Shown here: positions 5,191-5,729 of the stretch, one piece after another
Numbering within the stretch: the first letter of the stretch is position 1
Layout of the letters: each line of letters begins with the position of its first letter
IMG/VR virus record: IMGVR_UViG_2529292985_000036
DNA: 10,626 bases
From: a virus
Lineage: Duplodnaviria > Heunggongvirae > Uroviricota > Caudoviricetes
Reading direction: 5' to 3' (one strand)
Program-made: the position numbers and the translations under genes
Notes under the pieces: model-generated
What the model saw: the letters and a program-made list of their open reading frames with translations, nothing else
Told to the model about the DNA's origin: nothing
Database searches by the model: none

Positions 5191-5343
5191 ATGGATACTA
5201 TCGATCTTGGCAACAGCGAATCTCTGGTATGTGGTGTGCTCCCCAACCAGGACGGCACATTCACCGCCATGACGTATACCAAAAGCAAAACGTTTAAAAC
5301 CGAAGCTGGCGCGCGTCGCTGGTTAGCAAGAAACTCCGACTGA
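5191..5343 (+). CDS. YdfA-like small protein (DUF1391-type), 50 aa
   Basis: ATG at 5191 with GAGG 5 nt upstream. The track ORF starts at TTG 5086, but that extension covers the predicted promoter. MDTIDLGNSESLVCGVLPNQDGTFTAMTYTKSKTFKTEAGARRWLARNSD resembles Qin YdfA by recall (low certainty). Stop TGA overlaps the next ATG (TGATG). Confidence 0.6.
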   Translation: MDTIDLGNSESLVCGVLPNQDGTFTAMTYTKSKTFKTEAGARRWLARNSD

Positions 5344-5729
5344 TGAGGTTGACGATGGAATTTAAAGATTTACCAGTACCATTCCAGGAAATGGCATCGA
5401 ATGTGGTTCGCTCTCAACTGGCGACTCTTGACCTGAGTACCGTAGAAAAAGAAACCATCGACAATATATCCGGTAACGTACGCCGAGCCTTTATCGGGCT
5501 GTACGAAGAGAAGCAGCTCTCTGATAACCAGGATTTACATGAAAAATACTTCCTGGATCTAATGGACATCATTGATAAGGGGTTTGGCTTGTTAATGAAA
5601 AAGAAAGGGATTCGAATAGAACCCCTTGAAAATCATTTTACAGCAAGCAGTATTAATTCCTGTGATTTAAAGCATCACACATCCGATGGGAAAGTTGAAT
5701 CAAACAACAAAATATCAATTAATCATTAA
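5343..5729 (+). CDS. Hypothetical protein, 128 aa, translationally coupled to the ydfA-like gene
   Basis: ATG 5343 overlaps the upstream stop; alternative ATG at 5355 has GAGG 6 nt upstream. MRLTMEFKDLPVPFQEMASNVVRSQLATLDLSTVEKETIDNISGNVRRAF... has no recognisable motif and no obvious hydrophobic segment. The 3' third is AT-rich and low complexity, so the true C-terminus is uncertain. Confidence 0.5.
   Translation: MRLTMEFKDLPVPFQEMASNVVRSQLATLDLSTVEKETIDNISGNVRRAFIGLYEEKQLSDNQDLHEKYFLDLMDIIDKGFGLLMKKKGIRIEPLENHFTASSINSCDLKHHTSDGKVESNNKISINH

Follow-up and report, generated by a model that had tools for sequence, protein, structure and literature searches.

A conserved small-protein gene between ydfA and the DicF leader in Qin-type dicBF operons of Escherichia coli prophages

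The dicBF operon is a model for the effects of cryptic prophages on their hosts: division is affected by both DicF and DicB, metabolism by DicF and phage resistance by DicB. To our knowledge the promoter-proximal genes of the operon have never been given a function, and all work on it was done in K-12, which itself lacks the gene described here. That gene, called X below, lies in a 10,626-nucleotide (nt) stretch of DNA from a virus of the Caudoviricetes (IMG/VR record IMGVR_UViG_2529292985_000036), hereafter the window. The window comes from a lambdoid prophage of Qin type and covers the immunity and early-left region. X sits between ydfA and an untranslated leader that precedes DicF, and we found it conserved in reading frame and position among related prophages. 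The features at the head of the operon were as follows:

5191..5343, plus strand: ydfA homologue (DUF1391), 50 residues (Pfam PF07151; PHROG 751, E 3.9e-35)
5345..5348, plus strand: Shine-Dalgarno sequence GAGG for X, 6 nt before ATG 5355
5355..5729, plus strand: gene X, encoding an acidic, predicted soluble protein of 124 residues (PHROG 6937), delimited by the starts of homologues, annotation by the Prokaryotic Genome Annotation Pipeline (PGAP) and the ratio of nonsynonymous to synonymous substitution rates (dN/dS)

The preliminary description of this DNA had read X as a 128-residue open reading frame (ORF), translationally coupled to ydfA by a TGATG overlap. The frame is indeed open across 5343-5729 and TGATG is present at 5341..5345, but the conserved start lies 12 nt further on, at ATG 5355, and gives 124 residues; the two genes are not coupled through TGATG. 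All 222 homologues began with MEFKDL, which corresponds to ATG 5355, PGAP called genes of 375 nt (124 residues) whose starts lie 12 nt beyond the stop of ydfA, and position 1 of the PHROG 6937 profile aligned with residue 5 of the 128-residue ORF. Where X follows ydfC, an in-frame TAA stands upstream of MEFKDL with no ATG upstream, and GAGG is again found ahead of the start. The start was placed at ATG 5355 on the agreement between homologues, PGAP and PHROG profile and on the lack of an upstream in-frame ATG in the ydfC-X loci. Judged from the sequence, ydfA and X are closely spaced genes (11-nt gap) that do not overlap. At one related locus (L021 3982-4000) an 8-nt duplication (TTGACGAT TTGACGATG) between the Shine-Dalgarno sequence and the start codon of X widens the distance from ydfA to X to 19-20 nt without affecting the MEFKDL start.

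We surveyed 103 loci from complete genomes, assemblies and IMG/VR, given L numbers where they need to be told apart. Qin-type loci made up 102 of these, the exception (L004) being Stx2 phage PA8, which carries only a distant homologue of the N-terminal module of X. Throughout the 102 Qin-type loci, X (or an allelic form) is separated from an upstream ydfA by 11-12 nt or from an upstream ydfC by ~22 nt, and some loci have the full series ydfA-ydfB-ydfC-X. Wherever the contig is long enough, X is followed on its 3' side by the conserved leader, by DicF in most loci, by dicB-ydfD or kilR, and by an exonuclease gene. The immunity modules upstream are of DicA type, of CI/S24 type and, in one case, accompanied by a PaaA2-ParE pair. 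That homologues might recur beside dicF/dicB in other prophages was raised in the preliminary description, which held that missing homologues, an unconserved frame or absent synteny would count against the gene. None of these sequence-level objections applies, as homologues exist, the frame is conserved and the synteny with DicF/dicB across the 103 loci is very strong. X is found without ydfA in L006-L013 and L017, and ydfA without X in K-12. Since X can stand behind CI/S24-type repressors or PaaA2-ParE with no ydfA present, the two do not form an obligate pair; a toxin-antitoxin pair of ydfA and X was rejected for that reason and because searches of Pfam, NCBIfam and PADLOC gave no toxin-antitoxin domain. 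At L017 (2991-3462) the PaaA2-ParE toxin-antitoxin pair lies between the repressor gene and ydfC, where ydfA-ydfB sit elsewhere.

In the window and 57 other loci of its form (58 of the 103 surveyed), the leader begins directly after the X stop (5729/5730), without the second small gene, Y, that occupies this place in other relatives. X occurred in these Y-less loci as 18 DNA alleles and 13 protein alleles with a median pairwise dN/dS of 0.12, and had 12 variable sites at first, 6 at second and 28 at third codon positions. All 58 copies encode the full 124 residues, with no frameshift or premature stop. The other two forward frames of X contain 7 and 13 stops, and in the first 105 codons divergent X alleles, compared in pairs, had dN/dS of 0.17-0.33. 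By these sequence comparisons X is a genuine coding gene under purifying selection. Of 5426 complete E. coli genomes, 672 (~12%) carry 80% or more of the gene, always annotated as 'hypothetical protein', and the exact 124-residue sequence is already in the databases as 'MULTISPECIES: hypothetical protein [Shigella]'. The ydfA-DicF surroundings (parts of the query 5000-6100) matched ~80% of genomes, against ~12-16% for X. It might be argued that X has no function of its own and is a mosaic leftover hitch-hiking with DicF/dicB, or that its sequence matters only as part of the DicF-precursor RNA, given that K-12 and most DicF-bearing prophages do without it and that its tail is poorly conserved and predicted to be disordered. 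We regard this as very unlikely in view of the dN/dS of 0.12-0.3, the third-position bias, the stops in the other frames and the 58 intact Y-less copies, together with the conservation of the N-terminal module at the protein level, which reaches down to 46% identity in Stx2 phages.

Alignment, PHROG matches and an AlphaFold2 model divide the X protein into three parts, with model confidence given as the predicted local distance difference test (pLDDT) and divergence as the synonymous substitution rate (dS):

5355..5519, plus strand: residues 1-55, N-terminal two-helix module (MEFKDLP...NVRxAFxGLY), from PHROG matches, alignment and AlphaFold2
5520..5630, plus strand: residues 56-92, type-specific third helix (59-83 in AlphaFold2; pLDDT 71-81 over residues 61-90)
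5631..5726, plus strand: residues 93-124, polar tail, predicted disordered and the most divergent part (pLDDT <50; dS)

The protein has an isoelectric point of 5.5, a net charge of -5 and a grand average of hydropathy of -0.49; its maximum 19-residue Kyte-Doolittle mean is 0.51, and hydropathy analysis, applied as a test for a YdfD-like membrane or lysis protein, found no transmembrane segment. The AlphaFold2 model (mean pLDDT 64) has helices at 8-22, 32-53 and 59-83, with pLDDT of 71-82 in the helices, ~61 in the linker and below 50 in the tail (about residues 92-124). X is predicted from this model to be a soluble protein of three amphipathic helices and a disordered tail. Against L006 the tail gave a dS of 1.36, compared with ~0.2 elsewhere in the gene, and in alleles of 106 and 109 residues it has been swapped for a shorter one.

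According to the preliminary description the protein had no recognisable motif, which holds for Pfam, NCBIfam and PADLOC but not for PHROG, where X belongs, at full length, to PHROG 6937 and has a recognisable shared module in its first ~55 residues. Positions 1-124 of the 124 in the PHROG 6937 profile matched residues 5-128 of the 128-residue ORF (E 4.4e-77). This family ('unknown function') includes WP_016237926.1, WP_021562669.1 and A0A2S8D512_SHIDY, from which X does not differ as a member. PHROGs 1363, 2151 and 9419 matched only the N-terminal part, from residue 5 to residues 59-68 of the same ORF. The module (residues 1 to ~55) was found on about 30 protein clusters of 101-208 residues, always at residue 1 and joined to unrelated C-termini; these clusters fall in PHROGs 1363, 2151 and 9419, and some of the C-termini in turn have their own PHROG matches. 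Positions M1, K4, L6, A14, L22, K32, V42, R43, F46 and G48 are invariant in the alignment of the module. The C-terminal half of X (residues ~65-124), by comparison, occurs essentially in one full-length cluster, P0032, the few others being fragments or variants of this type. In the identical slot after ydfA there are also alleles of 133 and 122 residues, and the PPompW prophage of O157 has a 135-residue form in the slot (PPompW_EH2246_070, BCI50170.1). In Stx2 phage PA8 a 147-residue protein with the module (AKI86187.1) is encoded between the recT region and the eaA/int end. These relatives share with X the first ~55 residues and a place in the early-left operon of lambdoid phages, but their C-terminal halves are unrelated to that of X, and the PA8 locus has neither DicF nor dicB. 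The named sources of the X family are Escherichia, Shigella and, rarely, Salmonella. An exhaustive hidden Markov model search over 1.84 billion representative proteins returned 41 matches, all within the same narrow family except one spurious match of 29 residues in a 2331-residue protein. When contigs were scanned at one genome per species, the only loci were two from E. albertii, which confirmed the narrow host range, and a word-indexed protein search with the module profile found only E. coli 'hypothetical' fragments.

X had no match in Pfam (E <= 0.1), NCBIfam or PADLOC, and these searches showed no enzymatic, DNA-binding or membrane domain; in particular, there was no Pfam match at E <= 0.1 to DicB or KilR (PF05358, PF27398). 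Ten module-bearing relatives with other C-termini gave only chance-level matches to Pfam, below the cut-offs. The X profile found nothing among PDB sequences below E 0.065, and the matches of a fold search were non-specific, none of them informative. A role as an N-like antiterminator was set aside on the strength of the acidic N-terminus and the absence of an arginine-rich motif, as judged from knowledge of lambda N. The host-takeover, exclusion or anti-defence function proposed in the preliminary description was neither supported nor contradicted: no defence or anti-defence model matched X, the fold matches told nothing and the literature search was empty. X could also be an anti-defence protein, that is, a small acidic early protein that neutralises host immunity (for example restriction, RecBCD-like or abortive-infection systems) as lytic growth begins and whose variable C-terminus tracks variable host targets. 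It is small, acidic, helical, accessory, polymorphic and early in the operon, and its presence in ~12-16% of genomes, against ~80% for its surroundings, is what would be expected of a dispensable arms-race gene. However, no PADLOC model matched X, although no dedicated anti-defence library was searched, and no solved anti-defence protein was among the sequence or fold matches. Many carriers are, moreover, defective prophages with no obvious use for such a protein, yet X is under purifying selection, and on balance we consider an anti-defence function unlikely.

Most other relatives, L005-L017 and L021 among them, carry Y, a small ORF of 73-100 residues on the minus strand between X and the leader. 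The positions of Y at four loci, and of a hairpin within X that may bear on it, were:

L006 4365-4586, L012 4299-4574, L021 4293-4595 and L005 4386-4619, minus strand: gene Y
Window 5605..5627 with T-run 5595-5604, minus strand: terminator-like hairpin inside X (consensus scan, pattern match only)

Y has a strong ribosome-binding site, AGGAGGGTGAAATG, and overlaps the 3' end of X, and the type of Y covaries with the X tail or C-terminal type. Its types fall in PHROG 7249, 8894 or 10348 (all of unknown function), while a 91-residue type matches no PHROG. The minus-strand hairpin is kept in the Y-bearing locus L006 (4251-4273), ~100 nt past the Y stop, and from its sequence and placement may terminate transcription of Y. 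These features suggest that X might be one half of an X-Y cassette, either effector/immunity-like or sense/antisense, of which the window holds a copy orphaned by deletion of Y. Besides the overlap and covariation in L005-L017 and L021, the terminator-like hairpin within X and the lack of both genes in K-12 would fit such a cassette. The covariation could, however, stem from the physical overlap; in L018-L020 Y is frameshifted to 27 residues and X is intact; and the frequency of Y-less X (58/103), always intact and with a median dN/dS of 0.12, indicates that X is maintained without Y. X as half of a cassette therefore appears to us distinctly unlikely.

Comparison of the window (5343-5760) with K-12 Qin (L003 3043-3080) showed X and Y to be missing from K-12 by a clean indel from the ydfC stop to the leader, the ydfC stop being followed by ...CAACAAAGCTAAGGTTAGTAATTAAGGAG joined straight to the conserved leader. 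The two loci are alike in their divergent dicC/dicA-like regulators, in the -35 element and 5' untranslated region (UTR), in having ydfA first, and in the succession of conserved leader, DicF, dicB, ydfD, large exonuclease gene, xis and int. They differ in that the window lacks ydfB and ydfC and has X, and in the HTH (helix-turn-helix) region of the repressor and the operators. The slot had been described as variable, with ydfA-ydfB-ydfC in K-12 Qin, and so it is; X is nonetheless no alternative to ydfB-ydfC, as it often lies downstream of ydfC. Comparison of X by eye with K-12 YdfB and YdfC showed no similarity, and they belong to different PHROGs.

The first ORF, taken in the preliminary description for a 50-residue ydfA-like gene, proved to be one: YdfA matched positions 1-48 of the 48 in Pfam PF07151 with 98 bits (cut-off 27.3), and the gene has its own GAGG at 5182-5185, 5 nt before the ATG. 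A match of YdfA to AbiEi in PADLOC (E 0.027, 12 bits) was at chance level, as was the best among PDB sequences, to a head decoration protein (E 0.065), and a literature search found nothing on YdfA function. When the operon was induced in K-12 with both dicF and dicB deleted there was no growth inhibition (PMC5069750), which indicates that YdfA is no major toxin. The 'ydfA' of PMC12111858 belongs to a plasmid, pUA1135, on which the neighbouring ibfA matches its R64 counterpart; the context is unrelated, and by that context, rather than by sequence, we took the shared name to be coincidence.

The remaining features of the operon and its regulators were:

1-378: IS1 InsB transposase, C-terminal part, at the left window edge, adjoining an ead/Ea22-like gene
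4290..4550, minus strand: dicC-like Cro-type regulator (Pfam P22_Cro, 63.6 bits), divergent from the repressor gene
4595..5002, plus strand: dicA-like HTH repressor, 135 residues (Pfam HTH_3, 60.9 bits)
5063-5083 and 5093-5113, bracketing the promoter: operator-like inverted repeat with 21-nt arms (repeat search)
5086..5114, plus strand: P_dicB-equivalent promoter, TTGACC (5086-5091), 17 nt, TAAATT (5109-5114); 9/12 matches in a promoter scan
5115..5190, plus strand: conserved operon 5' UTR with a CACCGCACGGTG hairpin and the ydfA Shine-Dalgarno sequence
5730..6035, plus strand: conserved untranslated leader (DicF precursor), 306 nt, starting 1 nt after the X stop (alignment of 8 loci including K-12)
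6036..6087, plus strand: DicF small RNA (Rfam RF00039, 76.7 bits)
6262..6450, plus strand: dicB (Pfam DicB, 129.5 bits)
6447..6635, plus strand: ydfD (DUF1482; Pfam, 56.4 bits)

That the two genes stand behind a promoter flanked by operator repeats and ahead of DicF, dicB and ydfD was borne out on both sides, upstream by a site between the 21-nt repeat arms that aligns with K-12 dicBp, and downstream by the Rfam and Pfam matches. The scan alone was at chance level (3 sites found, 2.8 expected), and the promoter was identified because it aligned with K-12 dicBp. The -35 element (CTTGACC) and the whole 5' UTR share that alignment, and the 5' UTR is near-invariant between the window, K-12 and two other prophages, though the operators differ. 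The core of the repeat, TTGAGTTTTCTCA, has a third copy at 4531-4543, in the dicC-dicA intergenic region. The differences from K-12 in the operator segment and the repressor HTH region indicate a different immunity type. The operon can be recognised as a Qin-type dicBF operon by its DicA-type HTH repressor gene, the divergent Cro-like gene and the promoter upstream of ydfA, on which the repressor would act, and by the DicF small RNA followed by dicB and ydfD on the same strand. The arrangement also bears on whether X might serve the lysogen as a DicB-like superinfection-exclusion or defence factor. Prophage accessory genes are often of such a kind, and DicB of the same operon is reported to block phage infection when expressed (PMC6832061). 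The promoter scan, though, found no promoter-like site between the repressed promoter and X, so that expression in the repressed state would be by read-through only, and X has neither a membrane segment nor a PADLOC match; we consider a role in the lysogen most improbable.

Between prophages the leader varies less than the coding sequence on either side. It opens with a conserved GCCGGA...TCCGGC hairpin with a variable loop, and the leader gives a better fold than shuffled controls do (z-score -2.5); no Rfam family covers it. Between DicF and dicB, at 6099-6239, there was a sub-threshold match to Rfam STnc100 (38.4 bits against a gathering threshold of 47, E 1.7e-6). In ST131-like relatives (L002 6588-7555) a module of a Rha-family regulator, isrK and a C4 antisense RNA lies between DicF and dicB; it resembles P1/Gifsy-type antirepressor control, and there is a partial dicB duplicate at the insertion point. 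kilR replaces dicB-ydfD in L012, L013, L017, L059, L061 and L097, about 525-811 nt after the X stop. By Rfam scan DicF is kept in L012 and L017, and a motif scan of L097 found none. As kilR loci retain DicF without dicB, and the L097 scan was negative, the linkage of DicF and DicB is not constant.

The dicA-like repressor gene corresponds in position and length to K-12 dicA, and at homologous loci the dicC-like gene is annotated as Cro/CI family, with a shorter PGAP version (228 nt) in related genomes. The minus-strand replication and accessory genes of the window include the ead/Ea22-like gene, DUF4406, DUF977, DUF1627, P, a DnaT-like O protein and YdaT. Downstream of ydfD are an exonuclease gene of 824 residues, an excisionase-like gene and an integrase gene cut by the window end. 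Near-identical loci on E. coli chromosomes have the same gene order and end at tRNA-Ser beside mtfA. The Shigella entry for the exact X protein, taken with the IS1 part at 1-378, points to Shigella as the likely source of the window.

In K-12, DicA represses a transcript that starts upstream of ydfA and extends across dicF and dicB (PMC10448788), from which it follows that production of X should require derepression and coincide with that of DicF and DicB. By analogy with K-12, and from its position, X is probably co-regulated with DicF/dicB. On these grounds the DicA-like repressor, when bound to the operators around 5086-5114, would keep ydfA and X silent. Once the repressor is removed, both would be carried on the same polycistronic RNA as DicF, DicB and YdfD, and X, 11 nt behind the ydfA stop, would be translated with a Shine-Dalgarno sequence of its own. 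Lambdoid early-left operons encode several binders of host proteins, among them DicB (MinC), Kil/KilR (FtsZ) and lambda CIII (FtsH). X resembles these by analogy in operon position, small size, dispensability and expected expression after loss of the repressor, but has no sequence similarity to them, in that no Pfam DicB or KilR match was found. We tentatively favour, at somewhat less than an even chance, an accessory protein expressed on derepression that acts by protein binding. The acidic, helical and predicted soluble character of X, the lack of an enzymatic, DNA-binding or membrane domain in the Pfam, NCBIfam and PADLOC searches, and its modular build speak for this reading. X would bind another protein rather than be an enzyme, a membrane protein or a DNA binder; the N-terminal hairpin would form a constant docking or oligomerisation surface, with specificity set by the variable C-terminal helix and tail; and the protein would have a non-essential, accessory part in early lytic development, modulating a host or competitor protein. 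Several points weigh against this. A literature search yielded no paper on X. That the N-terminus is constant and the C-terminus variable could be a side effect of lambdoid mosaic recombination within the gene, rather than an adaptor and specificity design, and co-transcription with DicF/dicB is extrapolated by analogy from K-12, itself without X.

A broader proposal is that the slot between ydfA or ydfC and the DicF leader is a hot spot of polymorphic cassettes, in which an adaptor hairpin carries a swappable C-terminal 'warhead' (X and the 133-, 122-, 135- and 147-residue forms) and is accompanied by a covarying Y, in an effector/immunity-like or anti-defence/defence relationship. We think this rather improbable; if it were true, X of the window would be a stand-alone effector on a host or rival-phage protein not yet known as a phage target.

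YdfA belongs to DUF1391 and X to PHROG 6937, a catalogued family of unknown function, and the operon has all the features of Qin dicBF that were examined. New here are the corrected start of X, its purifying selection and invariant synteny, the N-terminal module, the clean absence from K-12 and the convergent partner gene of most relatives. By analogy, X would belong with the small accessory proteins of lambdoid early-left operons as an uncharacterised member. It is one more conserved hypothetical protein in a known operon, with no new mechanism, but a reasonable and cheap experimental candidate: Shigella and roughly one in eight complete E. coli genomes carry it, and it is part of a modular family limited to lambdoid phages of Escherichia/Shigella.

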